Part shown: positions 29,951-52,463 of the stretch, in pieces
How the letters are laid out: each line of letters begins with the position of its first letter
Position numbering within the stretch: position 1 is the first letter of the stretch
Assembly (NCBI RefSeq): GCF_004010195.1
Contig: NC_057719.1
Location: 18,621,159 to 18,685,158, forward strand
DNA length: 64,000 bases
Reading direction: 5' to 3'
Origin: Chiloscyllium plagiosum
Taxonomy: Eukaryota
Position numbers and translations under genes: made by a program
Notes under the pieces: model-generated
Told to the model about the DNA's origin: nothing
The model's input: the letters and a program-made list of their open reading frames with translations, nothing else
Database searches by the model: none

Positions 29951-30168
29951 AGTGAAAGTGAGGACTGCAGATGCTTGAGATCTGAGTTGAAAAGTGTGGT
30001 GCTTGAAAAGTACAGCCGGTCGAGCAGCATCTGAGGAGCAGGAGAATCGATGTTTCAGGCATAAACCCTTCATCTGGAATGTGAAGGGCTAATGCCCGGA
30101 ATGTCAATTCTCTTATCTCCTCGGATGCTGCCTGACCTGTTGTGCTGTTCCAGTGCCACACTTTTTGA
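29951..30168 (-). mobile_element. PLE-derived fold-back mini-element (degenerate hammerhead)
   Basis: TSD cccatatccctct at 29935-29947 and 30169-30181; ~90-bp inverted arms; 36-nt unpaired tail at 29951-29986. Confidence 0.88.
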
Positions 30169-31415
30169 CCCATATCCCTCTAAATCCATCCTATTCATAT
30201 ACCCATCCAGATGCCTTTTAAATCTTATAATTCTACCAGCCTCCACCATTTCCTCTGGCAGCTCATTCCATACATGCACCACTCTCTGCATGAAATGTCA
30301 CCCCTTAGGTTACCTTTAAATCTTTCCCATCTCACCGTAATCCTATGCCCTCTAGTTCTGGACTCCCCCACCTCTGGGAAAAGACCCTGTTTATTTATCC
30401 TATCCATGCCCTTCATTATTTTATAAACCTCTATAAGGTTATCCCTCAGCCTCTAATGCTCCAGAGAAAATAGTTCTAATCTATTCAGCCTGTCCTTATA
30501 ATTCAAATCCTCCAAACCTGGCAACATCCCTGTAAATTTTTTCTGAACCCTTTCAAGTTTCACAACATCCTTCCTGTAGCAGAGAAACCAGAATTGCATG
30601 CAGTATTCCAAAAGTGGCCTAACCAATATCCTGTACGACTGCAACATGATCTCCTGTACTCAATACACTGACCAATAAAGGCAAGCATACAAACTCCTTC
30701 TTCACTATCCTGTCTACTGCGACTCCACTTTCAAGGAACTGTGAACCTGCATTCCAAGGTCTCTTTGTTCAGCAACACTCCCCAAGACCTTACTATTAAT
30801 TGGATAAGTCCTGCCCTGATTTGTCTTTCCAAAATGCAGCACCTTATATTTATCTAAATTAAACTCCAACTGCCACTCCTCGGTCAATTGGCCCATCTGT
30901 TCAAGATCCCGTTGTACGCTGAGGTAACGTTCTTTGCTGTCCACTATACCTCGAATTTTAGTGTCATCCACAAACTTACTAACCAGACCTCCTGCGTTCC
31001 CATTCAAATCGTTTACATAAATGATGAAAAGCAGTGGATCCAGCATCAACTCTTGTGGCACACCTTTGGTCCAGACTGACAAGTAACCGTGCACCACCAA
31101 CATCTTTCTTCTACTTTTGAGCCAGTTCTGTATTCCAAATAGCTCGTTCTCCCACTAGTCAGTGTGATCTAACCTTGCTAACTAGGCTACCATGAGGAAA
31201 CTTGTTGAATGCCTTACTGAATTCCACATGGATTATGTCCACCACTCTGCCCTCAACGATCCTCTTTGTTACTTCTTCAAAACACTCAATCAAGTTAATG
31301 AGAGATGATTTCTCCATGCAGAAAGCGTGACTTTCTCTAATCAGTCCATGCTTTTCCAAATATATGTATATCCTGTCCCTCAGGATTCCTTCCAAGAACT
31401 TGGTCACCATCAATG

Positions 31416-31617
31416 CTGGAAAAGCTCAGCTGTCAGGCAGCAACTGAGGAGCAGGAGAGTGCTGTTTCGAGCATGCGCTCTTCATCATTCCCAATGAAGA
31501 GCTTATAATCAAAACATTGACTCTCCTGTTCCTCGGATGCTGCCTAATATGATGTGCTTTTCCAGTGCCACATTTTTTTGACTCTGATCTCCAACATCTG
31601 CAATCCTCACTTTCTCC
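31416..31617 (+). mobile_element. PLE-derived fold-back mini-element (degenerate hammerhead)
   Basis: TSD tggtcaccatcaatg (31401-31415) / tggtcactgtcgatg (31618-31632); arms centred on cttcatca-ttcc-caatgaag. Confidence 0.85.
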
Positions 31618-32329
31618 TGGTCACTGTCGATGTCAGGCTCAGTGGTCTATAATTCCCTGGTTTTTCCTTACCACCTTTCTTAATTAGTAGCACCACGTTA
31701 GCCAACATCCAATCTTCTGGCACCTCACCTGTATCTATTGATGATAAATATATCTCAGCAAGGGGCCCAGTAATCACTTCCCTAGCTTGCTACAGAGTTC
31801 TACGATACACCTGATCAGATCCTGGGGATTTATCCATCTTTGTGCATTTTAAGACATCTGACATCTTCTCCACTGTAATGTGGACATTTTTCAGGATATC
31901 AGTATTTATGTCCCCACATTTTCTATCTTCCTTCTCCACAGTGAACACTGATGCAAGACACTTGTTTTCTTTTAATCTCCCCCATCTCCGCGGTTCCACA
32001 CATAGGTGGCTAATCTTTAAGAGGGTCTATTCTCTGCCTAGTTACTCTTTTGTCCTTAATGTAGTCATCTGTTTGACACCTTTGCCATTGATGCCATGGA
32101 TGGGTCGACAGTCTCAAAAGAAAGCAGAATTTCATTAGTGCAGTTACTTTAGTTTTTTGTTAACAAGTTTAATCCATGTATTAACATGTCAAGCCAAGGT
32201 GCCTATTTTCGTCTGGTGTTCTAATGGTGAATTTTCATCAAAGCATTGTTGCCTCCGGATTTGATTACTCTATGGGCCTCCTTACAGCCTTCACATTGTA
32301 CCTCTTCTATAAATAAGCTCATTTTAGTA

Positions 32330-32555
32330 TTCTGCTGCTTCTAACCTAAAACACCACGTAACTGTTCAGTCAGCAGCTCTACTTGCTGATCTGCACTGGG
32401 TCGGGATCTGACATTGCCTTGAATTGAACATTCAGATCCTTGTTTCTGCATCCCTCTGTGGCCATACTCCACACCATTTCAGTTAACACTTCCAACTCTA
32501 CAACCCTGGACAAGATTCTCAAATTTTTCCTCCAATTCCTTATTCCTCCCTCCAA
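32330..32555 (+). mobile_element. L2 LINE 3' remnant
   Basis: ctacttgctgatctgcactgg (LLADLHW) is an L2 ORF2 C-terminal motif; an L2-type tail (ctcctgtaaag..aaaggtgctat) reappears at ~36720-36780. Confidence 0.55.
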
Positions 32556-32641
32556 TTAGATTCATACAGTCATAGAGATGTACAGCATGGAAACAGACCC
32601 TTCGGTCCAACCCGTCCATGCTGACCAGATATCCCAACCTA

Positions 32642-32857
32642 GTTCTGGATTAGTGATGCTGGAAGAGCACAGCAGTTCAGGCAGCATCCAAGGAGCAGCA
32701 AATCGACGTTTTGGACAAAAGCCCTTCATCCTGATGAAGGGCTTTTGCTCGAAACGTCGATTTCGCTGCTCCCTGGATGCTGCCTGAACTGCTGTGCTCT
32801 TCCAGCACCACAAATCAAGAATCTGGTTTCCAGCATCTGCAGTCATTGTTTTTACCT
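32642..32857 (+). mobile_element. PLE-derived fold-back mini-element with intact hammerhead
   Basis: Perfect 18-bp TSD accagatatcccaaccta at 32624-32641 and 32858-32875; arms ~32643-32730 and 32733-32821; 36-nt tail at 32822-32857. Confidence 0.93.
32729..32760 (+). ncRNA. Minimal type I hammerhead ribozyme (PLE-type), intact core
   Basis: uc-CUGAUGA(32731-37)-A-GGGC-uuuu-GCUC-GAAA(32751-54)-CGUC-ga. Confidence 0.75.
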
Positions 32858-34668
32858 ACCAGATATCCCAACCTAATCTCGTCGCATTTCCCAGCATTTG
32901 GCCCATATCCCTCTAAACCGTCCCTATTCATATGTACCTCCATATGCCTTTTAAATGTTGCAATTGTACCGGCCTCCACCACTTCGTCTGGCAGCTCATT
33001 CCAGACACGCACCACCATCTGCGTGAAAAGGTTGCCCCTTAGGTCCCTTTTATATTTTTCTCCTCTCACCCTAAACCTATGTCCTCTAGTTCTGGACTCC
33101 CCCACCCCAGGGAAAAGACTTTGTCTATATACACTATCCATATCCTTCATGATTTCTTTCTCCTCTATGAAATCACTCCTCAACCTTTTACTCTCCAGGG
33201 ACAATAGCCCCAGCCTATTCAGCCTCTCCCTATAACCCAAATCCTCCAACCCGGGCAACATCCTTGTAAATCTTTTCTAAACCCTTTCAAGTTTCACAAC
33301 ATCATTCCAATAGGAAGGAGGCCAGAATTGCATGCAATATTCTAAACGTGACCTAACCAATGACCTGTATAGCTGCAACATGACCTCCCAACTCCTGTAC
33401 CCAATACTCTGACCAATAAAGGAAAGCGTGCCAAACGCCTTCTTAACTATCCTATCTACCTGCGGCTCTACTTTCAGGGAGCAACGAACCTGCACTCCAA
33501 GGTCTCTTTGTTCAGCAACACTCCCTAGGACCTTATCATTAAGTGTATAAGTGTTGCTAAGATTTGATTTCCCAAAATGCAGCACCTCGCATTTATCTAA
33601 AGTATACTCCATCTGCCACTCCTCAGCTCATTGGCCCATCTGATCAAGATCTCATTGTAATCTGAGATAATTTTCTTCACTGTCCACCACACATCCAATT
33701 TTGGTGTCATCTACAAACTTACTAACTACACCTCCTATGTTCCTATCCAAATCATTTATATAAATGACGAAAAGTAGTGGACCCAGCACCAATTCTGTAG
33801 CACTCCACTGTTCACAGGCCTCCATTCTGAAAAGCAACCCTCCACCACCAAACTCTGTCTTCTACCTCTGAGCCAGTTTTGTTTCCAAATGTCCAATTCT
33901 CCCTGTATTCCATGAGTTCTAATCTTGCCAACCAGTTTCCCATGGGGAATCTTGTTGAACACCTTACTGAAGTCCATATAGATCACATCCACCACTCTGC
34001 CCTCATCAATCCTCTTTGTTACTTTTTCAAAAAAACTCAATCAAGTTTGTGAGACATGATTTCCCACACGCAAAGCCATGTTGACTATTCTTAATCAGTC
34101 CTTGCCTTTCCAAATATGTGTAAATCCTGTCCCTCAGGATTCCCTCCAACAACTTGCCCACCACCGACATCAGGCTCACTGGTCTATAGTTCCCTGGCTT
34201 GTCCTTACCACCCTTCTTAAATAATGGTATCATGTTAGCCAACCTCCAGTCTCCTGGCACCTCACCTGTGATTATCGCTGTTACAAATATCTCAGCAAGA
34301 GGCCCAGCAATCACTTCTCTAGCTTCCCACAGAGTTCTAGGGTACACCTGATCAGGTCCTGGGGATTTATCCACCTTTATGCATTTCAAGACATTCAGCA
34401 TTACGTCCTCTGTAATGTGGACATTTTGCAAGATGTCACCGTCTATTTCCCCACATTTTGTATCTTCCATGTCCTTCTCCACAGTAAACACTGATGTAAA
34501 ATACTTGATTAGTATCTCCCCCATCTCCTGCGGCTCCACAAAGGGCTGCCTTGCTGAACCTTGAGGGGGCCTATTCTCTCCCTAGTTACCCTTCTGTCCT
34601 TAATGTATTTGTAAAAACCCTTTGGATTCTCCTTAACTCTATTTGCTTCCTTTTTTATAACTTGCTGT

Positions 34669-36693
34669 AATAGAACATAGAATATAGAAAATTACAGCAC
34701 AGAACAGGCCCTTTGGCCCATGACGTTGTGCTGCGGATTAATTTTAAATGAAATAACCTAACCTAAGCATCCCTCAGTTCACTGCTGTCCATGTGCATTT
34801 CCAGCAGTTGCTTAAATGACTCTGCTTCCACTACCAACGCTGACAATGCATTCCATGCATTCACAACTCTCTGCGTAAAGCACCTACCTCTGATATCCCC
34901 TCCATACCTTTCTCCTAATATCTTAAAACTATGACCCCTCATGCCAGTCAATCTTGCCCTGGGGAAAAGTCTCTGGCTATTGATTCTATCTATGCCTCAC
35001 ATTATCTTGTATACCTCAATCAAGTCTCCTCTTTTCCTCCTTCTCTCCAGAGAGAAAGGTCTGAATTTAGTCAACCTCTCTTCACAAGGCAAGCTCTCCA
35101 GTCCAGGCAGCATCCTGGTAAACCTTCTTTGCACCCTCTCCAAAGCCTCTATATCTTTCCTCTAGTAGGGCGACCAGAACTGGATACAATATTCCAAGAG
35201 CTGTAGCAAAACCTCGCAGCTCTTAAACTCGATCCCCCTGTTAACAAAAGCCAAAACGTCATATGCTTTCTTAACAACCCTATCCACTTGGGTGACAACT
35301 TTGAGGGATCTATGTATTTGAACACCAAGATCCCTCTGTTCCTCCACATTGCCCAGAATCCTGTCTTTAATCCTATATTCAGCATTCGAATTCGACCTTC
35401 CAAAATGTATCACTTCTCATTTATTCAGGTTGAACTCCATCTGCCATTTCTCAGCCCAGCTCTTCATCCTGTCTATGTCACGCTGTAGCCGGCAATAGTC
35501 CTTGTTACTATCAACGGCACCTCTAACCTTTGTGTCATCAGCAAATTTACTAACCCACCCCTCAACCTCCTCATCCAAGTCATTTATAAAAACTACAAAG
35601 AGCAGAGGCCCAAGAACAGAGGCTTGCGGGACACCACTCAACACTGACCTCCAGGCAGAGTACTTTCCATCTACAACCATGCTCTGCCTTCTGTCAGCCA
35701 ATCAGTTCTGAATCCAGATAGCGAAATCTCCCTGTATCGCACACCTCCTGACTTTATGAATGAGCCTACCAGTGGAACCTGATCAAATGCCTTGCTGAAG
35801 TCTGTACACCCCACAGCCACTGCTCAACCTTTATTGATCTGTCTTGTCACCTCCTCAAAGAACTCAGTAAGATTTGTGAGGCATGACCTGCCCCTCACAA
35901 AGCCATGCTGACTGCCTTTTATCACACTATGCTTTTCCAAATAATCATAAATCCTATCCCTCAGACTTCTTTCTAAGACCTTGCTGACCACAGACATAAG
36001 ACTGACAGGTCTGTAATTGCCAGGGATTTCCCTATTACCCTTCTTGAAAAGGGGAACAACATTGTGTGGAGTTTGCATGTTCTCCCCGTGTCTGCGTGGG
36101 TTTCCTCCGGGTGCTCCGGTTTCCTCCCACAGTCACAAAGATGTGCAGGTTAGGTGAATTGGCCATACTAAATTGCCTGTAGTGTTAGGTAAGGGATAAA
36201 TGTAGGGGTATGGGTGGGTTTCGCTTCGGCGGGTCGGTGTGGACTTGTTGGGCCGAAGGGCCTGTTTCCACACTGTAATCTAATCTAATCTAATTCACCT
36301 CCTTCCAATCTTCCGCTACAACTCCTGTGGAGAGTGAGGAAGCAAATATGTTCGCCAGCAGCTTAGCAACCTTCTTTCTCGCTTCCTGGAGCAGCCTAGG
36401 ATAAATCTGGTCTGGCCCTGGGGACTTATCAATCTCAATGTTTGTCAAAATTTCCAGCACATCAACTTCATCAATCTTGATCTGTTCAAGCCTGTAACCC
36501 AGCTCCTCAAAGTTCTCATTCACAACAAGGTCCCTTTCCTTAGTGAAAAACAAAAACAAAAACCTTATTTAGGGCTTCCCCTATTTGCTCAGCCTCCATG
36601 CACAAGATTCCTACACTATCCCTGATCGGCCCTATCTTCTCCATGATCATTCTCTCATTCATCATGTATGAATAAAATGCCTTTGGGTTCTCC
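34669..36693 (-). mobile_element. CR1 LINE ORF2 (RT) pseudogene, second subfamily
   Basis: Peptides SGVPQASVLGPLLFVVFINDL..SKFADDTK, PGNYRPVSL and DKSPGPDQIYPRLL; 3' end in tagaacatagaa repeats. Confidence 0.97.
36063..36292 (+). mobile_element. HE1-type SINE (5'-truncated, young) nested in CR1
   Basis: gtgtggagtttgcatgttctccccgtgtctgcgtgggtttcctccgggtgctccgg with CpGs retained; (taatc)n tail. Confidence 0.93.
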
Positions 36694-36889
36694 TGTATTA
36701 GCTCTGTGTCATTTTTCAATGATCATTCTCCTGTAAAGTACCATTGAGTATTTTACTGTGTGCAAAAGGTGCTATTATTATTATACTCATGCCATCTCTG
36801 TGTGTGGAGATTCAATGGGTTTTTAGGAGTTATTCTCAGCAATAGTTTCCAACAATCTTCCAAGGTACCTTCATGTTTACACTACATAA

Positions 36890-38238
36890 GTACCAGCCAA
36901 TGACCATCTATCCACAACTCCTTCTCATTTGACAGCTTTGCTATCACTGGATGCCCCCACTTTTAACATCCTAGAACTTACATTTGATCAGAAACTGAAC
37001 CGGCCATATAAATGATTGGACTACAGGACCAGATTAGAGTCTGAGAAGCCTGCAGTGAATAACTTGTCTCTTGACTCCCCAGCTACAAGCACAAGGTAGG
37101 AATGTGATGGAATACCCACCCCTTGCTTGGATGACTGTAGCTCCAACTACACTCAACAATTGTGATGATACTGTGACTCTAAGAGATGTATTTGGCCCTG
37201 TATTTTATGAAGAAAAGTTGAGATCAGAAGTGACAACTGGTCTGTTTCAAAGCTATTAAAGTAAACAGCTTGTGAGGCCTTTTATTTTCTAAATTCAGAA
37301 CAACAGAATGGGTGGGGTCAAGCTCCCACAGAACCAAGATTTCTAGTTTTAGTTTTCCAGTAGCAGTTGCTAGGGTCCTGAAGCTACAGCACATCTCTCC
37401 CTGCTACTCTCTTTCTCAGAGTTTTCTCCTGACGTTTTTCCTGCTGATCAGCAGAGTTGTATGTGAGACAATTGATTTTGCCAAGGGTGTGTTAATGGGA
37501 ACACATGTGTGTTCATGGTTACTGCATTGGAACAGTTACTGTTTAGTAGTTAAATAATCTATTATTCTGTTAAGTTTTTCCATACAATTAAGTTATTCCA
37601 ATTTCTTCTTTCCTTCATGGTATTTTAACTATAGTGTATGAATAAAGTGTATTTTGCTTCAAGCTGGTGGTTTACCAAATCAAATTGTATCCAGAATGAA
37701 ATGCTGGGCACTTGTCTTTAAAATAAGAAAAAGTTAGGGTCTAGGCTATCTTCTTAACATATTTTGGTCCATAACGCAAACTTGACACCATCCAGGACAA
37801 GGCAGCCTGCTTGACTGGTATTGTATCCATCACCTTCAAATATTACATAATCTGCCATCACCACCCACTTGGTATCAGTATGCAGCATTTATAAGATGCA
37901 CGAGAACAAATCACCAGGGTTCGTCCGGCTACACCTCCTAAAACTGCAGCCTCTATGAGCAAGAAAGACAAGGACAACAGATGAGTGGGAACATTATCAC
38001 CTATGAGTTCGTCTCCAAGTGACACACCATCCTGGCTTGAAACAATGTCACTGTTCCTTCATTGTCACGAAGTTAAAATGCTGGATTTCCTCCCTAATGG
38101 CACTGTGGGTGTCCCTATAGCAGATGGACTTCAATGGTTCAGGAAAGCAGCTCATCACCACTTTTCAAGTGTTGCTCAGAGTGAGCAACAAATGCTAGCT
38201 TTGCCAGAGATGTATACCTCTCATGAATGCATTAAAAA
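36890..38238 (+). mobile_element. LINE family B 3' fragment, split by a solo LTR
   Basis: Peptide RNVMEYPPLAWMTVAPTTL stops at 37160 and resumes as cttgacaccatccaggacaa (LDTIQD) at 37781. Confidence 0.82.
37161..37776 (+). mobile_element. Probable solo LTR (616 bp)
   Basis: Termini tgtgatg...cataacg, flanks caat/caaa (4-bp TSD, 1 mismatch), aataaa at 37641; cleanly interrupts LINE-B. Confidence 0.7.
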
Positions 38239-39381
38239 AGGTACCCAAAATAAGGTCTTGGATGTCAGTTTAGCTGTGTTAATTGTAAGATGCCATGTCA
38301 GTATAGGATTTGATGTCTGCTCTAGGAATGGTACTCAGAGGCTTGTTAAAGAGTTAGTTGCTATTTTACATATTTTGTTATTATGATTGCTATTATGAAC
38401 AAGTTTGCATTGCTTTTTAGTAGCCTGTGCTTGACCTTATATACTCTCCAAATAATATAACATTGATAACACTTTCAAAGTACTTCACTATCCGTGAAAC
38501 ATTTTGGAATGTCCTATTTTGCCTCAATAGCCACCAACTCTTTGTTAGTAATAAGAAAAGGGTGGCTTGATTCAACTGTTAACTCTGCTTTCTTTCCACA
38601 TACATGACAGACCTACTGAATTTCTCTAGCAATTTCTGTTATTGTTTGATTGTATGCATGGTTTTTGGTTTGTAATTGCAAAGCGAAGGACTGCACATGA
38701 TTTTATGCTCACTTGCTACTGTCACTGTGAAGGAAGTTTCTGAAACACTTGAGAAGACTTTTGAGACATTGTCAAGACTTCAAGAGTCTAGCAACATTTA
38801 TTCTAAAACTTTTATGGGGATTTCATCTAAAAGAGAGTAAATGCTATTTTATTCTTCATCTTGCTGAGCACCGGGAAATAGAGAGTGCTCAGTCATACTT
38901 ATCTAGAGTGGGTCCCCTATGGCCTGAATGAGGAATGGAAGAATATGTGGCCAAGTACAGCAGCACATACTGCTCCTTGAAAGAAAGAGAGTGAAAAAGG
39001 TGGAGTGAAAAGAATGCAAGTTGATATCCTATCCCCTATTGGCATAGGATAGGTCTCCATCTCTGGAACCTCCCCACCTTGACCTCGAATACAACATCTG
39101 TTAGTGTGAACTCCCCATTTCTCAGTCACTGCAGGCTAAGAAAAAATGTGAACAGATCAATAGCTGGATTAAGTTCACTGGTGGAAGCCTCAATTTCTTG
39201 TTTCTTAATCAATCTGCAGGCTGCAAAGGTCTGTATTTGGTGATATCCATCTGCATGTGCCAGAATGCCGCACTGATAGAATTTTTTTTTGCCTTCAAGA
39301 ACTAATCATTATGGGTCAAGTGCTGTTTTAAATGAAAGTTAAACTCCGCAGAGGGAAACACATTTTTTTCCTCTTCATCTG

Positions 39382-39489
39382 GTGTGTGTTTGTGTGTGTG
39401 TGTGTTCGTGTTGGTGTGTGTTTGTGTGTGTGTGTCTGTGTGTGTGTGTTTGTGTGTCTGTGTTAGTGTGTGTGTGTCTGTGCTTGTGT
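39382..39489. repeat. Imperfect (TG)n microsatellite
   Basis: Direct reading of the sequence. Confidence 0.97.
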
Positions 39490-39821
39490 TTTCAGTTATG
39501 TGGAAGGGCAATGGTTTATATTTTCACCTTAGAAACTGACTGTACTAACCAGTTTGGCATCTTCATGGAATAACTTGTTTGCCAATAAATCAATAATTTT
39601 GTACTTATTAAAGATACCTGATGACAGATCTTTATATTTGAAGTCTAATATGGAGAAAGCATACAATTGGCCATATTAAAAACTGCATAAATGATTAAAA
39701 TGAAGTTGTGATATGTGGAAAAACTAAATTAGAGAGACACAGTGCACTGTTCCTCTTTTGGTTTGTAACACTTAAGAACCATTGAGGTACTTTTGAGTGT
39801 GAACAGCAGTATAGCTTACAG

Positions 39822-40034
39822 ACGAAAATAGAGATTGCTGGAAAATCTCAGCAGGTCTGGCAGCATCTGTGGAGAGAAATCAGCGTTAACATTGCAGGTT
39901 GAGAGAGTCATTCGACTCAAAACATTAACTCTGACTTCTCTCTACAGGTGCTGCCAGATCTGTTGAGATTTTCCAGCCATTTCTGTTTTTGTCTTTGATT
40001 CACAGCATCTGCAGTTGGCCTTTTCTTTTTATTT
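39822..40034 (+). mobile_element. PLE-derived fold-back mini-element, family of 46253-50048
   Basis: TSD agtatagcttacag (39808-39821) / agtatcgcttacag (40035-40048); inverted arms centred near 39900; tail ..cagcatctgcag..ttttattt. Confidence 0.85.
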
Positions 40035-40089
40035 AGTATCGCTTACAGGTTCTACAGCAGTGATGTTATAGTCACCATATAATCTGTTT

Positions 40090-42540: not shown

Positions 42541-42554
42541 ACCATTGGCTGTGT

Positions 42555-42878
42555 TTTGTAATTCATTTGCAAGATGCAGGCAGCACTGCTAAGCCCTAAT
42601 TGACCTGAGTGCAGTTAAGAGTCAACTAAAATGCTGTGTAGGTTAGATCAGCAGACTTTCTTCCCTAAGGGGTATTGTGAACAACAGGGTTTTAATAAAA
42701 ATTGACAATGTTTTACATGGTCATTACTAAGATGGCTTATTCATTCCAGACTTTGTTTTTATTGAGTTCATATTTCGCCATCTGTCATGGTGGGAATCAA
42801 ACCCATGTCACCAGAACATTAACCTGGGGTTCTGGATTACTAACTCCGTGACATTACCACAACACTACCATCTCCCCA
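42555..42878 (-). mobile_element. tRNA-SINE with LINE family-B tail
   Basis: Colinear with 11672-12016. Confidence 0.7.
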
Positions 42879-43839
42879 CTGTCAGGTTCTTTTTGCAAAA
42901 GGAGAAGCATTTTTTTCTGACAACAACCCTATCAAATACATTCAAAAATGGGGGAAAAAAAACCTTTATTGGATGGTGAGGGAGAAAATGTCTCTTATAG
43001 GGGTATGTGCAGGATGCTTCACTGTTACAAACTACAGATGGGACTGTTGCATGATGGCGTGACACAGAACTAACTGCTAATTGGAAATAAGAGTGGTGTT
43101 GACGTTGGATCTGAATCTGCCTTTACCCAATCAATTTAGTGCATATAAATGATGCAAATTATTAGCATGACAATACATCGATTGTTGCCGAGCTGATAGA
43201 GAATAAGCAAGTTCTTAATGCAGATATAGAACACACACATCATTCACAGCAACAAAGATTATCAAAGTGTATTGCAAGGATGCCCACTTGCTTACTTCAT
43301 TCCCAGTCTCATATTTTAATGTATTAATTTTACCCCCTTCATCATTCCCTTTACACTTCGTCATCAAGACAGAAATCTCTGTAATGACTTCCAATAACAC
43401 TCTCTTAAATGCTGCCAACAGAATTTTCAAAAACATTTATTTTTTAAAAATAAAAGTTGTTAAAACTAGCTCCATCTAACGCACGGTAAAGGGATATTAC
43501 TTGTTTGTTTTTTTGGAATTTTCTGAGTTGAAACTTGTAAACTGCTATATTTAAACTGACTTATTGGAAGAGGCAATTGTTTGGTGGGAAGGGAACAGTA
43601 AATTAACGCAGCAGGAGATAAGTAAGTATATCAGAATCTTTATAACAGTGACTACACTTCACAATGTACTGCATTGACTGCAAAATGCTTCAAGACATGC
43701 TGAGGTCATGAAAGGTGCTATATGAATGTAAGTTCTTTATTTTGTCCTTTGTAATGAAGTGATAAACCATCCAATTTAATATAGTTCTATGCAATCCTGC
43801 TCAGGTTAGTGTTTTAAGCTACATCAAAGCCATTGTCAG

Positions 43840-44325
43840 GGGAGTTACCTCCAGTGTCACAGCTAAAATTTATCCCTCACATAAATACGCTGAAAATAGA
43901 TTATCTGGTCATTATCACATTGCTATACGTGGAAGCTTGGCTTTATTTATTATTCCTTCATGAAATGTGTGCTTTGCTGGCGGGGCCAGAATTTATTGCC
44001 CATCCCTGGTTGACCTTTAGAAAGTGGTAGTGAACTGCCTTCTTGAATTGCTGAAGTCTATTTTATATAGGTAAATCCACAATGTCGTTAGAGAAGGAGT
44101 TCCAGCATTTTGACCCTGTGACACGAAGGAAAGGCGATATATTCCCAAGTCAGGATGGTGTGTGGTCTGGAGAGAAACTTGCAGGTGGTGGTGCTCCCTG
44201 AGAGTGTAAATCAGCAGCTACGTTTCCTGCAGTGATCAAACTTCAGAAATGCTTCATTCAACGTGAAGTGTTCTTTCATATTCTGCATTCAAAAAGTGCC
44301 ACATAAATGCGTAGTTTCTTTTTGT
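43840..44325 (+). mobile_element. Deu-domain SINE interrupted by a minus-strand LINE-B 3' end (~43945-44200)
   Basis: agattatctggtcattatcacattgct..gtggaagcttg, then the LINE-B tail in reverse, then gtgtaaatcagcagctacgtttcct...ataaatgc. Confidence 0.6.
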
Positions 44326-45394
44326 TTATTAGGAAAATGTCAATTTTGTCACATAACTGAATTCAGCAGTGTTTGTGTTTGGGACAATGTCAGTCCAATG
44401 AATTCCATGTCTTGTCTCTCTTCAAATTGCAAGAATTAGGTATAGCTGGAACTATTGATAACTTAGTAGAAATAGACTATGTTAAAGTGCTCATTTTTAT
44501 GTTCTGATCCCTCCGTGACTCTGCTTTTCATGTCTCTGTAACCTCCTCTAACCCTACAATCCTCTGAAAGATGCTGGTTAGCCTTTTACAATTTCCCACA
44601 CCCTTCCTCTCATCATTGACCTCATCCATTCAGGTACTAACCTCTGGAATTCCCTTCCCAAACCATTTTTGTCCTTCCTTTCCTCTCTGCTTTCCAAACT
44701 TTAAACCTACATCTTTGACCAAATGTTTACTCCCCTGTTCTAATAACTCATTTTCAAGCTCAGCGTAAACTTTACTGTCTGTTATGGGGACTGAAATTCA
44801 ATATTTGCACAGAGATGATATCTCTTTACATATCTATATAGGGACCCCCACTCGTGCCCAACTAACGTGCGCTGACAGCAAAGATGTAAAAAGACGCACT
44901 GACACTGCAGCAGAAGCAGAGCAAAGACTCATCCAGTGAGCAAACCAAAATGTTTGTACAGTTACAGTGCCAGTATATAGCACCAAAGATGGGGGACACT
45001 AAAAACCGGTGTTGAGAGAAGACTCAAAAAGCATTTGGAATGAGCTGTCGGTGTAAAATCCTTTTGGTGTCATGAGAAGAGATAGAATCTGGAATGGAAG
45101 GGAACTGCAAGATCTTAGATAGCAGGAATAATTCCAAAGTGGAGCTTGTCATACCTTGCAGCACTCAGCTGAATGCTGATTGTTAGCTGACAAATATTCG
45201 ATTAGGATAAAAGAAAAAAGAACAGGAAACGTGGAAATTCAAACTAAAGACTGGAAATGCACGGCAGGTCGGCCAGGGAAAGGGAAATGGATATTTCCTG
45301 CAAGTCTTTTCAATCAGAACCAAATATCCTATCTACGTGGTCGATTTTATGGTACTCAACCTGAGAAAATGTTACAAAGGCATTGGCTGCAGTT

Positions 45395-45600
45395 ATCCAG
45401 GGTGACAACTGTAAGCTGGATGTGAAGCAATGACAGCTGAAAGCAAAAGAAAGGCTTTGCATGTACACTGCACCTTATCATGTCTCTTCAATGAATTACT
45501 TTGAAATGCAGTCGCTGCTGCTTTGTATGCAAGCAGAGCAGTCTTATTGTGTTCGGCAAAGATCCCACAATCAGGAGTCAGATGAAGGAGCATCAAATCT
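45395..45600 (-). mobile_element. Deu-domain SINE / L2-type tail fragment
   Basis: tactttgaaatgcagtcgctg..tgt..gcagagcagtc..gcaaagatcccacaa is the reverse of the Deu core. Confidence 0.5.
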
Positions 45601-45769
45601 GTTTCTGTTGCTTTCGATTCAGAAATGCAACTTAGCCAGGGTGAACAAATTGAACTTTCTGCATTTCTTCAAATATTTAACCTCACCTTAAAACACTGGC
45701 TTTGTTTAACATCTAATCAGAATGACAGAACTTCAAATCATACAACTATAACGTCCTCAATTATTCGCA

Positions 45770-46075
45770 GAGCTGGAGGCACGAACGTTGCTGGCAACCG
45801 ATGAACTGCATCTACTCCATGTAGGCAGCTGTGCCCAAAATGTGAAAACGTGGAGCCGTTATAGTCGAGCGTGGAAGGAATCATTTCTCCATTCGATTAG
45901 CACCACCAGCACTTTCCTGTGATCCTCCTTTTATTTCTTTATTTTCTAATTATTTTTTTCCTGAGAGCTTGTACTGAAGAATCCTAGGTACCAAAAATGG
46001 TGCCATAGTAGTAACTTGCAAACGTTTCACTGTACTCATCTGAGTACATGTGACAAGCTAATTCATTTCAATTCC
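45770..46075 (+). mobile_element. Non-autonomous element with Rex1-like tail
   Basis: aaaatggtgccat...tttcactgtactcatctgagtacatgtgacaagctaattc. Confidence 0.5.
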
Positions 46076-48090
46076 TTTTTGGGAGTAGAAATGGGGCTCA
46101 GTATTGCCTGCACTCTGGGTACTTCTGGCATTCCAAAATGACACTTCTGAAGTGATGCTATTACCAGACGCCATTTAATAAGAGGCTAGCATGCCCACAC
46201 TTACCATCAGTGGCAATGCATAGTTTGCGAAATCAGTCAACACAGAATTATGAAATAAATACGAAATTCCTGGCAAACCTCAGCAGGTCCGGCAGCATCT
46301 ATGGAGAGAAAGCTGAGTGAGCATTTCGATTCTGGTGACTCTTCATCACAACTGATAGCAAAGGTGGCATTTATGCTGAAGGTGAGGTGAAGGGGGGTGA
46401 GTATGGGCGGGGGGGAAAGAGGCGAGTGGATAGTTAGAGATGGAGCCCAGAGACAGAGAGAGAGATATCAAGAGGGTAGTCAGATGAGAGAATTATTGGT
46501 AGTAGGCCAGCAGAGAAGAGAAGCTGAATTAGTGATAATGACAACTGAGAGTAGGAGAGAATGGGAAGGCTATGCTGAAAGCAGTCATGTCATAACTGGA
46601 CGGGGTGTGGAGTGGGTAAAAAGCATGGAAGGATGGAATCAGGCTCTAAAGTTACTGAGATCAATGTTGAGTTCCAAGGGCTGCAGGGAACCCAGGCAAA
46701 AAATGAGAAGGCATTCTTCAAGCTTGCACTGAGGGTCACTAGAACAGAAATGTGGATGTGGGAACATGCTGGTGTTTTGAACCAGCAGGCAATTGGAAGT
46801 TTGGGGTCATTTTTATAGATAGAATTATAGGTGTTCTGTAAAGTGGTCACCCAGTCTGCATTTTGTCCCTCCAATGTAGAGGGGACCACACTGTGAACAG
46901 TGAATGCAGTCAACTAGATTGAATGAAGTACAGGTAAATCGCTGCTTCACCTGGAAGATATGTCTGGGGCATTGGACGGGGAGAAGGGAGAAAGTAAACA
47001 GGCAGAGTTACATCTTCTAGGGTTGCAGGGGAAGGTACCATGGGGTTATGGAGAGGTGTTCAGAATGGAGGTGGAGTGGATTAGGGTGTCTCAGAGGGAA
47101 TGGTTCCTGCAGAATGCCAACAAGGGACAGGAGGGGTATATGTGTTTGGTCATGGCATTCCTCTGGAAGTGACAAAAATGGAGGCTTACAGTCTTTTGGA
47201 TGTGGAGGCTGGTGTGCTGGTAAATGAGGATAGGGAGGATCCTATTATTATTGTGGGTGTGATGAGAAGGGGTGAGGGCAGAAGTGCGGGAGATGGGTCA
47301 GACGCGGCTAAGAGCCATGTCAAATATGATAGCGTGGAATCCTTCATTGAGGAAAATATGTGGACATTTCTGAGGCCTCTCTTTGGAAGTTGGCATCATC
47401 AGAACAGATATGATGGAGATGGAGTAACTAGGAGAATGGGATGAAGGAAGCACGGTGTGAGGAAGTATAGTCCAGGTAACTGTGGAATCGATTGGTTTGT
47501 AATGGATATTGGTGGTCAGCCTATCCCAAGAAATGGAAACAGAAATGTTGAGGAAGAGAAGGGAGGATTCAGAAATGGACCAAGTGGAGGTGAGAGCAGG
47601 GTGGAAATTGATAAACATTTCCAATTCTGGATGAGAGAAAGAAGCACTGATATTTCATTGATATACCAGTGAAAGAGTTGTGGGTAGGAGCCAGGGAATG
47701 TTCAACATATCCCACAATGACTGGGATCATAACTGGGGCCCATGTGGGTACCCATGGCCATTACTTTCACCTGTAAAAAGTGAGAGGAGTTAAAGGAGAT
47801 GTTATTCAGATGTTGAGCTCAGCCAGGTGGAGGAAGGCAGTGTTGGAAGAGGATAGTTCAGGAAGAAGCAGAGAGCCGAGACCATCCTGATGGGAAAAGG
47901 ACGTGTAAAGAGGCAGTGACTGGAACCCGAAAACTGAAAATTCTGAAACTGATGTAAAACCTCAGAGGAATAATGGATGTAATAATGGGAAGGGACTGGA
48001 CAAGGAGCAAAAAAGATAAAATGGATGTTGGAAGAAATAGTTTCCATGGAGCAGGAACAAGTAATAATAATGGTTCTGTCCAGGCAGTCA

Positions 48091-48385
48091 AATCATAGAA
48101 TCCCTACAGTGTGGAAACAGGCTCTTTGGCCCAACACCGACCCTCCAAAGAGTAATCCACCCAGACCCATTCCCCTACCCTATATTTACCCCCGATTAAT
48201 GCATCTATCCTACACCTCCCTGAACACTATGGGCAATTTAGCATGGTCAATTCACCACACCTGCACATATTTGAACTGTGGGTGGAAACCAGAGCACCCA
48301 GATGAAACCCATGCAGAGACAGGAACAATGTGCAAACTCCACACAGACAGTCACCTGGGGCTGGGATTGAACCCAGGTCCCTGCC
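48091..48385 (-). mobile_element. HE1-type SINE nested in PLE
   Basis: Minus strand gggttcaatcccagcc..gactgtctgtgtggagtttgcaca; CR1-like tail at 48091. Confidence 0.9.
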
Positions 48386-48828
48386 CTAAAGTTCTGCTTG
48401 TGAATTTTTGGGGAGAAGGTAAAAGCAGGTGACACGATGTTGGGGGACTAGGAGATTGTCGAGAGGAGATCTCTAGGTTTAAGCTTGATGATGGGGTCAT
48501 GGTCCAGGGGAGCTGGGGGAAATGTCTGAGACTGGGCACTCAGCCTCTGCAATGTAATGGCCATTCAGCCAGACAATGATAGCATACCCTTGTTGGCTTG
48601 ATGAGGAAGTCAGGGTTACATCTGAAAGCACAGAGTGCAGTCAGTTCTGAGGGAGATAGGTTTAAATGGTTTTGGGAGGGGTGGGGCAGAGAAATTAAAG
48701 TTACCAACGTCATGTCAACAAGTTCTCAAAGAAGGGGTCAAAACTTTGTCAAGCATGAGGAAAGAAAAAGAAAGTAATGGAGTAAACAAGAAGAAAGGTT
48801 AAAATGGAAATCCCGTTGGAGAGAGGAG

Positions 48829-49855
48829 CAGATGCTGAAATCCAAAGTAGACAGGCAAGAGGCTGGAAGGACACAGCAAGCGAGGAAGCATCTGGAGGTG
48901 GAGAAGTCAAATTTTTGGGTGTAACCCCTCTTCAGGACTGGGGTGGGGGTGTGGGGGGAGTTGCAGATAAAGGGGGTGGCGGGGCAGTGTGGTGAAGTGG
49001 GGCCACATGAAGACAGGCAGAGGGTACGACCTGGTTGGTCAATGGGAGGAATGAAACCGGTTGGTGGCAGGGAACAGTTGAAGGGAGGGCGAGGGGCTGG
49101 GAAGGGAAGTTATTTGAAATTGGAGAACTCCATATTGAGTCCTCCCGGCTGTAGGCTGCCGAGGCAGACGATGAGGTATTATTCCTCCAGTTTGTGGTTT
49201 GGTTCATTGTGGCAATGGAGGAGGCCAAGGATGGTCATGTCAGAAAGGGAGTAGATCGGGGGAATTGAAATGGGCAGTGACTGGGAGGTGCGGTTGGCCC
49301 GTGCATGCCTGGCTGTGATGTTCAGTGAACCATTTCCTAAGTTTATGTTCGGTCTTCCTGATGGAGATAAGACCACATCGAGAGCACCTGATGCAGTCAA
49401 CTCCATTGGAAGAGAGGCAGAATCGAGAATGTGGTGCTGGAAAAGCACAGCAGGTCAGGCAGCCTCCAAGGAGCAGGAGAATCGACATTTCAGGCAAGAC
49501 TCCTTCATCATTCCTGATGAAGGGCTCTTGCCCAACACATGGATTCTCCTGCTCCTCGGATGCTGCCTGACCTGCTGTGCTTTTCCAGCACCACACTCTC
49601 GACTCTGATCTCCAGCATCTGCAGTCCCTCTTTCTCCAGGAAGAGAGGTGGGTGAACCTTTGTTTCACCTGGAAGGACTGTTTGGGGTTCTGGATGGAGG
49701 TGAGGGGGGTGGTGTACTGGCAGATGCGTTGGATGCGGAGACTGGTGAGGTGATAGGTGAGGACAAAGGGGGACTCTGTGTTTATTATATTGGGGATGGT
49801 TTAGAGCAGTGGAATGGGAAAAGGAGATGGTGCGGCAGAGGTCTATCTGGATGAC
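48829..49855 (-). mobile_element. Second PLE (5'-truncated: GIY-YIG endonuclease + pLTR) nested in the first
   Basis: Peptides VDCIRCSRCGLISIRKTEHKLRKWFTEH..LPVTAHFNSP and HKLEE..LGSLQPGGLNMEFSNF; pLTR with gtc-ctgaaga core near 48935. Confidence 0.85.
49418..49638 (+). mobile_element. PLE-derived fold-back mini-element nested in the GIY-YIG region
   Basis: TSD ggaagagagg at 49408-49417 and 49639-49648; arms centred on cttcatca-ttcc-tgatgaag; ~31-nt tail. Confidence 0.9.
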
Positions 49856-50305
49856 AGAGGGAGGAAGAGTAAAGCTTCTTCAAGGTGGGCATACCTAGAA
49901 AGAGATGTGGTAGTGAATTAAAAACGCAATTAAATCAAAGAACAGCAGATGCTGGGAATCTGTAACAAATCCGAAACAGAAATTGCTAGCAAATATCAGC
50001 AAATCTGGCAGAGTTAACATTTTGAGTCCAGTGACTTTTCATCAGAATAGTCAATGATATCTTGATACTAGTGCTGTTAGTTTTGGTGCTTTACGCTTAT
50101 AGTCAAAGCTGCCTCTTAACTTTGTGCAGCAGATCATGCACTAAGGAGGGTGAGGATTTCACAATTTAAAGGGGTCATTAACTACCCACTAATGAGTTGG
50201 TGATTGATTTTGTCTGGCTATTAAACCAATTCTGCACAATCTTGCTGCTTTCTACAGCTGTATAAAAATTGCTGCAATTGTCATGCTTATGCACTTTTTT
50301 CATTG

Positions 50306-50645
50306 GATCCCTACAGTGTCGAAGCAGGCCATTTGGCCCATTGAGTCACACTGACCCTTTGAAGAGCATCCCACCCAGACCCAGACCCCCTCCTTGTAAC
50401 CCTGCATTTCCCAAGGTGAATCCTAACCTGTAAATCCCTGGACAGTATGGGCAATTTAGCATGGTCAATCCACCTATCCTGCACATCTTTGGACTGATGG
50501 GGGAAGCCAGAGTGTCCAGAGAAAACCCATATAGATATGGGCAGAATGTGCAAACTCCACACAGATAGGCACCTGAGGGTGGAATGAAACCCAGGTCCTG
50601 AGTGCTGTGAGGCATCAGTGCTAGCCACTGAGCCATTGTTCCACC
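50306..50645 (-). mobile_element. HE1-type SINE, full length
   Basis: Minus head gggtggaacaatggctcagtggctagcactg, HE1 core, CR1-like tail. Confidence 0.9.
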
Positions 50646-50735
50646 CTAACTTCTTTATTTTTTAACCTTTTAACTGATTTAAAGGCTGGTGATGCACAGA
50701 ATGGTTCCTCCTAGACATGGATAGGCTAATACAGG

Positions 50736-51169
50736 TTCTGGATCAGTGGTGCTGGAAGAGCACAGCAATTCAGGCAGCATCCGACGAGCAGCAAAATCGA
50801 TGTTTCGGGCAAAAGCCCTTCATCAGGAATAAAGGCAGAGAGCCTGAAGCGTGGAGAGATAAGCTAGAGGAGGGTGGGGGTGGGGAGAAAGTAGCGTAGA
50901 GTACAATAGGTGAGTGGGGAGGAGATGAAGGTGATAGGTAGCTTCAGGGCAGAGGAAATGACCTGGGAGTTGCAGTGGGAGAGGGACTCCCTGAGATTCT
51001 TGTAGAGAGAGGAGGAAAACTTCTTCAAGGCAGGCATCCTCGCAAGAGGATTCACAGTAGGGTTAAAATCAACGAGGTAAAAACAATGACTGCAGATGCT
51101 GGAAACCAGATTCTGGATCAGTGGTGCTGGAAGAGCACAGCAATTCAGGCAGCATCTGACGAGCAGCAA
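50736..51169 (-). mobile_element. Internally deleted mini-PLE with 59-bp direct terminal repeats and hammerhead (retrozyme-like)
   Basis: Direct repeat 50736-50794 / 51111-51169 (1 mismatch, period 375); ORF start MPALKKFSSSLYKNLRESLSHCNSQVISSALKL from 51037, fused at ~50940 to a 3'-UTR-like tract. Confidence 0.88.
50797..50829 (-). ncRNA. Minimal hammerhead ribozyme, near intact (CGUC changed to CAUC)
   Basis: Minus strand uuc-CUGAUGA-A-GGGC-uuuu-GCCC-GAAA-CAUC-ga. Confidence 0.65.
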
Positions 51170-52055
51170 CAGTTTCAACATAACATTGAACATGCTTGAG
51201 CGAATGAGGGAAGGGTTCTGAGAGCAGGTCAAGTTCCCAACAGAGGGAAGAGAAGGAAATGGGGGCAAAGGGCTCTCAGCTTTTGACCATATCCACAGAT
51301 CATCGCTAGGGAGCAGATCCATGTAGAGCAGCTTGTGAAAGTGCTGTGACAATAGAAGCCTCTTGGCACAGCAGTAGTCTGAGACCCGACGGCAGCAGAG
51401 TGAGTTTTTGTGCCAGTGAGCTGAATTTGCAGGGCTTCACTCTGAACATTGCTCAGCACTCAGAGAATGGATGGATGCTGCAATAAAAGCTCAGAAAATG
51501 GCCATTCCACTGGGATCAGCTTGTTGGAGGTTGCATTTCACACCCATTTCATTTCATATGCAAAAGAAGAAGCTTCAGGCTCTGGAAAAGCTGTGTGCCA
51601 AGTTGGCTTCCTTCTTGCTCTTTGTTATTTAGGGCAGGCTTTTCACCTGGCTTCCCAGGCATGCCAAGCATCTGAGCATGTGCAGCACCCAGGAGCCTCC
51701 TTCTCAATGGGCCTTGCCCATTGAAGATACCATTTGAGACAACTACAGCTTTACAATTGTGAGTCTTCTCCCACACAATATAGATGGATGCCACTGCTAT
51801 TCTTTCCCCCTGAACTGGCTTCTATATTCCTGTGACCAGTATCTCAGCTGTGAAGATCCCACCCTATGTTCTCCTCTAAATTGTATTTAGTATCAAAATC
51901 TGAGCTGGTAGTGTTACTGTGAAAGCGACTGACAATATGTCTTTACCTTCACACCGCTCTTGCCCTTTATCCAGTGCCTGGATATCTTCAGCCTATGAAA
52001 ATGGATAGGGACACGAATAGAGAGTGGGAGGGCAGGCAAGGACTGAAGAGTGCAT

Positions 52056-52463
52056 AGTTTGTGAGAAGATTTGTAGCTCGGGTGCTCGTTGCTGTGGTTC
52101 TGTTCGCCGAGCTGGAAGTTTTTGTTGCAAACGTTTCGTCCCCTGTCTAGGTGACATCCTCAGTGCTTGGGAGCCTCCTGTGAAGCGCTTCTGTGGTGTT
52201 TCCTCCGGCATTTATAGTGGCCTGTCCCTGCCGTTTCCGGTTGTCAGTTTCAGCTGTCCGCTGTAGTGGCCTAATATACCGGCCACTACAGAGGACAGCT
52301 GAAACTGACAACCGGAAGCGGCAGGGACAGGCCACTATAAATGCCGGAGGAAACACCACAGAAGCGCTTCACAGGAGGCTCCCAAGCACTGAGGATGTCA
52401 CCTAGACAGGGGACGAAATGTTTACAACAAAAACTTCCAGCTCGGCGAACAGAACCACAGCAG
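52056..52463 (-). mobile_element. Young PLE-derived palindromic insertion (182-bp arms)
   Basis: TSD tgaagagtgcat at 52044-52055 and 52464-52475; arms 52090-52271 and 52281-52462; 9-nt loop; 34-nt tail at 52056-52089. Confidence 0.95.
52127..52166 (-). ncRNA. Minimal type I hammerhead ribozyme, intact (mutated mirror copy on + at 52386-52425)
   Basis: Minus strand GCA-CUGAGGA-U-GUCaCCU-agac-AGGgGAC-GAAA-CGUU-UGC; stem I GCA/UGC. Confidence 0.75.

Follow-up and report, generated by a model that had tools for sequence, protein, structure and literature searches.

Penelope-like elements (PLEs) of the EN+ group insert as a unit comprising an inverted pseudo-LTR (pLTR), a tail of 30-40 bp and a target-site duplication (TSD) (PMC3846280, PMC8557442, PMC8969392). 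In Adineta PLEs the TSD is 8-10 bp, and the inverted pLTR of Pen2a is 37 bp shorter and its tail 31 bp long (PMC3846280). The origin of the tandem and inverted structures of PLEs has been described as still undefined (PMC8557442). Hammerhead ribozymes in PLEs are mostly single motifs from truncated elements, and head-to-head pairs on opposite strands, about 100-700 bp apart, have been reported in Schistosoma (PMC4209133); the available text of that study does not describe TSDs, tails or junction position for the opposite-strand pairs and does not name sharks. For PAc, the Poseidon element of Anolis carolinensis (Frangieh et al. 2024, PMC11167929), reverse transcription in vitro begins at an internal site, the tail, on each of the two target strands. 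Both target strands are cut, the protein is a predicted dimer and hammerhead cleavage is dispensable; inverted arms and a constant 5' boundary are left unexplained in the available text (PMC11167929). Non-LTR retrozymes, which are non-coding, carry a type I hammerhead and derive from PLE pLTRs, were found in the one cartilaginous fish sampled (Li, Clavereau, Pollet 2026, 10.64898/2026.07.22.740005).

Here we describe six fold-back inserts, E1-E6, in a 64-kb window of the carpet shark Chiloscyllium plagiosum, the window being the whole stretch of DNA analysed. Retrozymes, as described, are head-to-tail tandems with at least two complete ribozymes, whereas E1-E6 are head-to-head with at most one intact core, and so lie outside that definition. 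Non-LTR retrozymes have reportedly also been treated by Cervera and de la Pena in 2020.

Six fold-back inserts and their target sites

Each insert consists of an inverted arm, a sense arm, an unpaired 3' tail and a flanking TSD (6/6; Table 1). An inverted-repeat scan of the window found no other element of this shape, giving a density of six in 64 kb for the window only. A first-pass annotation had placed six insertions here, and their arms, tails and TSDs agree with those places. E1 ends at 30164 and not at 30168 as it had proposed, the four bases fitting both arm and TSD. The annotation was right that the TSDs vary in length, its range of 10-18 bp widening to 10-20 bp across all six, and that the unpaired tail is one-sided, with about 31-50 nt becoming 31-52 nt (40, 52, 36, 42, 31 and 34 nt in E1 to E6).

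Table 1. Fold-back inserts and related PLE copies in the window (positions are those of the window; TSD, target-site duplication).
Feature	Position	Strand	Description
E1	29951-30164 (with TSD 29931..30184)	-	Family A; core decayed
E1 TSD	29931-29950 / 30165-30184		20 bp, 2 mismatches; host CR1 LINE 3' end
E2	31416-31617 (with TSD 31401..31632)	+	Family A; core decayed
E2 TSD			15 bp, 3 mismatches; host CR1 LINE
E3	32642-32857 (with TSD 32624..32875)	+	Family A; TSD 18 bp, exact; host CR1 LINE 3' end
E3 inverted arm	32643-32730
E3 core	32731..32758	+	Intact minimal type I: CUGAUGA, helix II 4 bp, GAAA-CG-UC
E3 tail	32822-32857
E4	39822-40034 (with TSD 39808..40048)	+	Family B; TSD 14 bp, 1 mismatch; arm junction inside helix II; CUGANGA absent
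E5	49418-49638 (with TSD 49408..49648)	+	Family A; GAAA box decayed
E5 TSD			10 bp, exact; host GIY-YIG region of older family D PLE, split by E5
E6	52056-52463 (with TSD 52044..52475)	-	Poseidon-like family C; TSD 12 bp, exact; arms 182 nt, 4 mismatches; loop 9 nt
E6 tail	52056-52089		AC-rich, 34 nt
E6 core, tail-bearing arm	52130..52163	-	Intact hammerhead
E6 RT/GIY-YIG ORF end, tail-less arm	52274..52402	+	43 codons, 91% identical to P0001
E6 mirror copy of ORF end	52272-52150	-
Family A partial tandem	50732..51169	-	Links family A arm to PLE ORF; 3' pLTR part and tail 51169-51075, then ORF start 51037-50939, 3' UTR, tail-less pLTR 50830-50732
Family A 5' boundary	50826..50830	-	A at 50830 is helix I first base, four bases before CUGA, and also the A of YYANWYY
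Family A solo arm	11227..11322	+	Begins at hammerhead core; tail and TSD none seen
Family A solo arm	14411..14500	+	Intact core; tail and TSD none seen; within SINE-like repeat
Decayed family B PLE	46257..47809	-	RT thumb, zinc-finger linker and GIY-YIG remnants, then pLTR matching E4 arms
Decayed family D PLE 3' end	48828..49737	-	GIY-YIG, 3' UTR, pLTR with tail; E5 host

TSDs were scored as length minus 3 per mismatch, with 150 random position pairs as control. The control never exceeded 9, and E1, E3, E4, E5 and E6 scored above it (14, 18, 11, 10 and 12); the control was allowed 12 bases of slack and the elements 30, the element TSDs directly abutting the element ends. E2 scored 6, inside the chance range, so its call depends on the paralogous empty site. 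Joining the flanks across a single TSD copy and aligning them elsewhere, we observed that those of E1, E2 and E3 match further CR1 copies of the window over the join at 82-84% identity (the E2 construct being off by one base). For the flanks of E5 the match is a different PLE endonuclease stretch (70%, E 1.8e-4), and in a tblastn search residues 263-286 and 287-317 of P0030, which are consecutive, fall on opposite sides of the insert. Paralogous empty sites therefore back four of the six inserts; flank alignment found none for E4 or E6.

Short, palindromic, TSD-flanked inserts could also be MITEs of a DNA transposon. We give this reading practically no credence, as symmetrical TIRs and a fixed short TSD are replaced in all six by TSDs of variable length and a one-sided tail, the arms are PLE pLTR (in E6 also PLE coding sequence), and the same arms exist as solos and tandems. 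On this point the annotation, which had warned of mislabelling as MITEs, is upheld.

Terminal-repeat families and hammerhead cores

The arms are pLTR sequence of RT/GIY-YIG PLEs. Those of E1, E2, E3 and E5 belong to one Neptune-like family (A), those of E4 to family B, and those of E6 to a Poseidon-like family C. The three pLTR families of the annotation thus stand in outline, with four of the six inserts from one family and family B its distant relative, and the assignment to PLE terminal repeats is supported by RT/GIY-YIG ORF matches in families A, B and C. The family A tail continues into the start of an ORF, 97% identical there to P0005; the N-terminus of P0005 in turn matches the full RT+GIY-YIG protein P0048 (E 3.6e-8), and the ORF start matches both P0005 and P0006, both of which match P0048. 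Continuity of the tail with the ORF 5' region was seen in family A only, and a partial tandem of pLTRs occurs within the window for family A and for neither B nor C. The arm families also occur in the window as solo arms. Family B remnants beside the pLTR match P0048, P0067 and P0114, which carry RVT_1 and GIY-YIG Pfam matches, the GIY-YIG scores lying slightly below the Pfam cut-off. Each arm of E6 codes for the final 41-43 residues of an RT/GIY-YIG protein, and the description of the inserts as non-coding is wrong for this element. P0001 is an RT protein with a GIY-YIG-type C-terminus in which the cysteine linker before the nuclease is absent, and full-length homologues considered for the Neptune-like families (A, B and D) carry C-x4-C-x2-C ahead of GIY-YIG. 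A zinc-finger-like motif between RT and EN is a feature of the Neptune clade (PMC8557442).

With the family B GIY-YIG piece phmmer retrieved 439 proteins at E<=0.001 and a word-index search gave no match. Pfam found nothing PLE-specific on the decayed PLE fragments of the window, in 0 of 4 pieces in one set and 0 of 7 in a second, where one piece gave three chance matches. A 25-base pattern of the family A core hit no loci in metagenome contigs and none in viral contigs.

A sense arm carrying CUGANGA and GAAA-CGUH had been put forward as common to all six. The hammerhead core is intact in two (E3 and the tail-bearing arm of E6) and decayed in E1, E2 and E5. The hammerhead search that the annotation proposed returned, with Rfam at E<=1, no hammerhead family and only hairpin-shaped miRNA models below their gathering scores, which match because the inserts are hairpin-shaped. 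The cores share with the PLE hammerheads of PMC4209133, as far as its available text describes them, the CUGANGA box, an extra base before helix II, GAAA-CG-UH, the lack of a real helix III and a helix I of 3-4 bp, and differ in the 4-bp helix II of family A. Structure prediction gives helix II at 0.95-0.97 when the E3 sense arm is folded by itself and no helix II when all of E3 is folded, and whole-element RNAs fold into long hairpins of -86 to -387 kcal/mol. The opposite arm is thus predicted to lock the ribozyme in a whole-element RNA. As a class, the inserts are of small significance as ribozymes, since the majority of cores have decayed and the remaining ones would be blocked by the hairpin.

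Formation of the palindromes

E1-E6 share with the EN+ PLE unit an inverted 5'-truncated copy head to head with a sense copy, a palindromic junction, a tail at one end only and a TSD of variable length. They differ in having two arms with no ORF between them, E6 keeping 43 codons, and in the family A centre, which is fixed at the first helix I base. On the published descriptions available they are the PLE insertion unit shrunk by 5' truncation and not a new class (PMC3846280, PMC8557442), and the distinct ribozyme-hairpin class that had been proposed finds no support. A PLE origin of all six is nearly certain, in line with the annotation's view that PLE RT/GIY-YIG made them, and they are probably 5'-truncated end-pieces of EN+ PLEs whose palindrome was built by their own RT at insertion.

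That each palindrome was made anew at its insertion seems likely to us. Across E1, E2, E3, E5 and the tandem copy the tails end within about 1-2 nt of one another, and the outer ends of the inverted arms vary by about 20 nt. Mismatch between arms follows mismatch between TSDs (Spearman 0.88, p 0.02, n=6), as expected if the members of both pairs started out identical. Five variant columns are common to the two arms of one element against one common to same-side arms of different elements; counting against this, the nearest arm of E1 and of E2 is not the partner arm. On these small numbers, the arm sequences lean towards palindromes made anew and not copied from a fold-back master. Element-specific columns would also result if conversion homogenised the arms.

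On the master reading, the strongest form of the annotation's view, the inserts are a self-propagating non-autonomous class: PLE enzymes would copy full-length transcripts of a few such masters, the inverted arm being truncated at its 5' end to varying extents. We regard this as rather improbable. The fixed tail end and variable outer end do form a 5'-truncation pattern, the junctions of E2 and E5 are identical with E1 differing by one missing base, and pLTRs suffice for trans-mobilisation in Adineta (PMC3846280). Set against this are the arm and column comparisons above, the differing centres of E3, E4 and E6, and the 5' base common to solos and head-to-tail joints (see below), which implies that the junction recurs without a master. 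Moreover, the whole-element RNA would be the long predicted hairpin, and the PAc template needs about 55 nt past the RT start site (PMC11167929), a stretch absent here. A shared E2/E5 junction is also what copying a common master would produce.

For insertion itself we marginally favour a route with two primers plus fold-back. The endonuclease would nick both strands 10-20 bp apart, and the two target 3' ends would prime cDNA at two internal start sites bracketing the tail, leaving the tail on one arm only. One cDNA would fold back on 1-2 bases of microhomology, or microhomology would join the two cDNA ends; the sense copy would then anneal to the other cDNA, giving a symmetrical centre wherever copying stopped. 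The insert would mostly be a dead end, and in a transcript of the entire insert the ribozyme would be held in double strand. Junctions contain 1-2 ambiguous bases, the sense arm beginning at +0 to +5 of the boundary and the inverted arm extending to +6 to +9, and the symmetry centre of E6 lies in its loop about 110 nt upstream of its hammerhead. A fold-back of 1-2 bp is unstable by itself. Snap-back of the tail-bearing cDNA as the sole route was rejected, since in E6 the longer arm is the tail-less side, the reverse of family A.

The palindrome might instead arise by self-priming of an antisense template RNA, as head-to-head palindromic junctions in Adineta Penelopes have been read (PMC3846280), and the junction loops here are short with microhomology. 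This does not by itself explain the tail always being on one arm or the sense 5' base common to solos and head-to-tail joints, and in vitro PAc copies a sense template, extending the two strands of the target (PMC11167929); we consider it an improbable alternative to two target-primed cDNAs. The AC-rich start region of PAc resembles the E6 tail (71% A+C). Unlike PAc as described, the Neptune-like families A, B and D have a CAGCATCTGC tail motif and are not AC-rich, and the TSDs of E1-E6 are not notably AT-rich.

The 5' boundary of family A

We surveyed outside contigs and reads for family A only, using the stretch 50640-51106. Loose ends accumulate behind 50830, in 986 contigs of run X1 (with 268 and 208 more at the next two bases), 1,052 contigs of X10, 142 contigs of X15 and 211 reads of X21. 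X1 and X10 represent two species, both with family A copies ending at the first base of helix I. Consensus agreement of the loose ends is 0.33-0.49, so the flanks behind 50830 are mostly unrelated, and raw-read depth across this base drops from about 720 to 160. The loose-end consensus begins GAGG in all four runs, and some of the 5' peak may come from a sister subfamily whose upstream sequence differs. These boundaries may already be visible in Frangieh Fig. S2 or the Cervera supplements. Head-to-tail joints from 50830/1 to the tail end at 51074-6 occur in 20 contigs of X1 and 31 of X10, a retrozyme-like form. One opposite-strand joint was present among the 15 joints listed (209 further joints); contigs may lose hairpins, which affects such counts. 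The local count of the annotation stands, and genome-wide abundance of the fold-back form is not confirmed.

We think the family A boundary is somewhat better explained as an RNA start than otherwise. Families A, B and D each have a YYANWYY motif, its A four bases before the core; in the B copy one of its bases has decayed. The motif is found at 1.3% of positions, and its reading as a promoter is not independent, because those four bases also make up helix I. X21, a poly(A) single-cell library of a type that would likely not keep RNA starts, showed none, and its reads on the family A stretch have no strand bias. A separate look-up over 48800-52700 listed no RNA data set for that stretch. A template cleaved at the hammerhead was rejected, as the arms hold the whole core; at the cut site, 50798/9, there was no loose end among the ends listed, a result that speaks neither for nor against cleavage. 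One possible exception is the tandem's upstream piece, whose 5' end lies a few bases past the cut site.

A PLE origin in which the boundary reflects RNA processing (a splice acceptor or other cut), or an RT stop at helix I, is unlikely, if less so than master copying or self-priming. The Drosophila virilis Penelope intron ends at the 5' border of helix I (PMC4209133), and a pyrimidine run and CAG stand at the boundary in families B and D. Family A, the source of the measured peak, has no AG there, and an RT reaching the structure from its 3' side would be expected to stall before it and not after.

If the family A boundary is an RNA start, an uncleaved RNA would begin at helix I and RT would run off its 5' end, leaving a cDNA of about 125 nt that resembles a 'strong-stop' product. 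It is possible, and we propose it only tentatively, that shark Neptune-like RNAs start at the first base of helix I and, with internal priming at the tail, yield a fixed strong-stop cDNA of about this length, a unit that builds solo stubs, fold-back stubs and head-to-tail dimers. The dimers, with two ribozymes, would result from RT reaching the 5' end of the RNA and switching back to the start site at the tail. Our literature searches found nothing tying Penelope-like elements to strong stop and nothing relevant on shark Neptune Penelope elements; for twin priming with Penelope no work on PLE mechanism was found in the text available, and 'non-autonomous Penelope' was absent among the matches listed.

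Such stubs would be labelled MITEs or miRNA-like hairpins in genome annotation, though they are PLE insertion products. Being short and numerous, with junctions and TSD intact, the inserts record nick spacing, two RT start sites and the template 5' end, from which predictions follow that the in vitro system already available could test. If true, the strong-stop unit would be a direct route from PLEs to tandem retrozymes, and would be a hint that copying at full length depends on a strand transfer like that of retroviruses.

Insertion structure and target sites

The six fold-back inserts (E1 to E6) are a real, well-formed example of the known insertion pattern of Penelope-like elements (PLEs), here in a shark, and not the distinct new class that the first-pass annotation had made of them. 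All six are present at the coordinates it proposed and, read in tail orientation, each runs from target duplication (TSD) through inverted arm, short loop, sense arm and unpaired tail to the second TSD. They share this with the typical Penelope structure, given in three reports as an inverted pseudo-LTR (pLTR), a tail and a TSD (PMC3846280, PMC8557442, PMC8969392). According to a 2014 study, hammerhead pairs on opposite strands, 100-700 bp apart, had already been reported, as had solo hammerhead motifs from truncated PLEs (PMC4209133).

The TSD score lay above the best of 150 random pairs, scored with narrower slack than the elements, for five of the six, E2 being the exception. Across the join, the flanks of E1, E2 and E3 align to other CR1 copies in the window; the E5 flanks align to a further stretch of PLE nuclease sequence. 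As these matches are paralogous empty sites, the four are true insertions with duplication. For E4 and E6 no empty site was found within the window. Two adjacent CR1 LINE 3' fragments (29826-36050) hold E1, E2 and E3, all of family A, within 3 kb; E1 and E3 hit homologous points of the CR1 3' UTR, some 25 bp from one another. A SINE-like repeat (14386-14630) that seems to have lost its middle surrounds the solo arm at 14411, which has no TSD and appears to be an insertion with target deletion.

Two other classifications were considered and rejected. Retrozymes are tandem and pLTR-derived, as described in a preprint (10.64898/2026.07.22.740005), which leaves the inserts outside that definition, and they are not MITEs by definition either. 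A different fold-back at 5319-5601, in which two symmetrical arms, each about 98 bp long and 89-91% complementary, enclose a 90-nt spacer, has no tail, no hammerhead match and no clear TSD; it looks like a true MITE, in contrast to the six PLE stubs. A weak tRNA-like match on the minus strand (42782-42853; 26 bits, under the gathering score) is probably a SINE head.

Inserts and related PLE features in the window
Feature	Position	Strand	TSD	Tail (nt)	Remark
E1 (family A)	29951-30164	minus	20 bp, 2 mismatches	40	
E2 (family A)	31416-31617		15 bp, 3 mismatches	52	
E3 (family A)	32642-32857		18 bp, 0 mismatches	36	
E4 (family B)	39822-40034		14 bp, 1 mismatch	42	
E5 (family A)	49418-49638		10 bp, 0 mismatches	31	
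E6 (family C)	52056-52463	minus	12 bp, 0 mismatches	34	
Family A solo arm	11227				
Family A solo arm	14411				
Family A partial tandem	50732-51169				
Family B	46257-47809				one pLTR preceded by RT/GIY-YIG remnants; the window has four more family B fragments besides
CAGCATCTGC motif	tails of E1-E5; 51075-51106; 48828-48860; 49941-49975				one base varied in E1, E2

PLE families of origin

Several pLTR families had been proposed as sources. Families A, B and C can indeed be distinguished, but four of the six inserts, 70-82% alike, belong to A alone; family B is a distant relative of A, and E6 is unrelated. A fourth family, D, is also present, and E5 is inserted in a copy of it. The two arms of E6 each code for the final 41-43 residues of P0001, a Chiloscyllium punctatum protein that combines RT motifs with a GIY-YIG-type end, and family C looks Poseidon-like. 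The family A tail runs on into the beginning of an ORF, which shows 97% identity to P0005 (C. punctatum) and 82% to P0006 (Stegostoma tigrinum). These two proteins in turn match P0048, which has both RT and GIY-YIG in full, at its N-terminus. The protein matches thus make the host a carpet shark. Judging from the zinc-finger linker carried by their homologues and from the CAGCATCTGC motif in their tails, families A, B and D appear to be Neptune-like. This motif is common to the three although their arms otherwise differ, and may be a signal at which the Neptune-like RT binds or starts.

Both E6 arms hold a TATAAAT box (52210-52216, minus; 52336-52342, plus). It falls in coding sequence, where the Poseidon-like ORF ends, some 50 nt upstream of the hammerhead core. 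P0004, an isoform predicted in C. punctatum for a 5'-nucleotidase domain protein, includes the Poseidon-like C-terminal peptide, either an exonised element or an annotation artefact. The partial tandem is an internally deleted family A copy with the ORF start joined to the 3' UTR near 50938; several other joints among those listed, from 50895-50902 to 50938-50973 in both species, suggest deleted family A subfamilies.

Ribozyme core and the family A 5' boundary

E3 and the tail-bearing arm of E6 retain an intact copy of the minimal hammerhead core proposed for the sense arms; in E1, E2 and E5 it has decayed. CUGANGA, expected intact or decayed in all six, is missing from E4, the centre of which falls within helix II, and a hammerhead search with Rfam detects none. 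Fold prediction on whole elements gives a single extended hairpin for each (-86 to -387 kcal/mol). In E3 the predicted helix II probability is 0.95-0.97 for the sense arm alone, with no helix II in the whole element, and the prediction for E6 parallels this loss. By this prediction, a transcript that spans a fold-back insert would have its ribozyme locked.

Counted from the A at 50830, four bases before CUGA, the sense arms of the four family A inserts start at +0 to +5 and their inverted arms reach +6 to +9; two family A solos start at about +3 to +5. We aligned the family A arm (50640-51106) to four public runs: 43,572 contigs of X1, 57,011 of X10 (a second species) and 3,471 of X15, and 1,683 poly(A) single-cell RNA reads (X21). 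The largest loose end listed was base 50830 in X1 (986 records), X10 (1,052) and X15 (142), and consensus agreement of 0.33-0.49 there indicates mostly unrelated flanks. Raw-read depth falls from about 720 to 160 across this base and is 9-19 on the ORF start. In X21, 211 reads end at 50830, with ends at the 3' side of the arm slightly more frequent among those listed; the RNA reads showed neither strand bias nor a pile of starts over the arm. None of the loose ends listed in the four runs fell at the hammerhead cut site. The 50830 peak may partly be a sister subfamily with different upstream sequence. Five of the 15 joints listed, seen in 20 contigs of X1 and 31 of X10, bring 50830/1 together with the tail end at 51074-6; they read as head-to-tail repeats of a unit running from helix I to the tail end. 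One of the 15 joins opposite strands, with 209 further joints and 1,208 further loose ends beyond the listing, so the alignment does not show fold-backs to be frequent.

Helix I opens with the boundary base. In families A, B and D this base also forms the A of an initiator-like motif, YYANWYY, which 1.3% of positions match and which is decayed by one base in the B copy. A start site within the pLTR is described for Penelope in PMC8557442. The main rival to a transcription start is a splice acceptor: PMC4209133 places an intron end at helix I in D. virilis, but family A has no AG at the boundary.

Formation of the fold-backs

Elements whose two arms differ more from each other (2-23% mismatch) also have more mismatched TSDs (rho 0.88, p 0.02, n=6). 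Five columns unite both arms of one element, versus one that unites same-side arms. Both patterns fit palindrome formation at insertion. On the other hand, the junction is identical in E2 and E5 and one base different in E1, the decay of E1 and E2 is too great for pairing with their own partner arms, and arm-to-arm conversion could produce a similar signal. In E6 the centre of symmetry lies well away from every hammerhead edge, and the tail-less arm is the longer one. This favours a fold-back step open to either cDNA over a chance coincidence in where the two cDNAs stop.

For PAc, the Poseidon protein of Anolis carolinensis, one report describes cutting and extension of both target strands, internal start at sites matching the tail, a predicted dimer, and hammerhead cleavage as dispensable (PMC11167929). 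Applying this scheme to the shark inserts by analogy, we infer that staggered nicks would give the TSD, and that two primers at two start sites would give one tailed and one tail-less arm. The family A centre would be fixed by run-off at the RNA 5' end, with closure through fold-back or a microhomology join. A solo would then be the product of one primer alone, and head-to-tail joints would reflect re-initiation at the tail following run-off. The literature covered, mainly the main text of open-access papers, held no naming of twin priming or of a strong-stop unit for PLEs, the latter being our proposed short cDNA from the tail start site to the RNA 5' end at helix I. It is possible, if somewhat short of probable, that this unit is the source of retrozyme-like dimers, and such an origin is the part worth testing.
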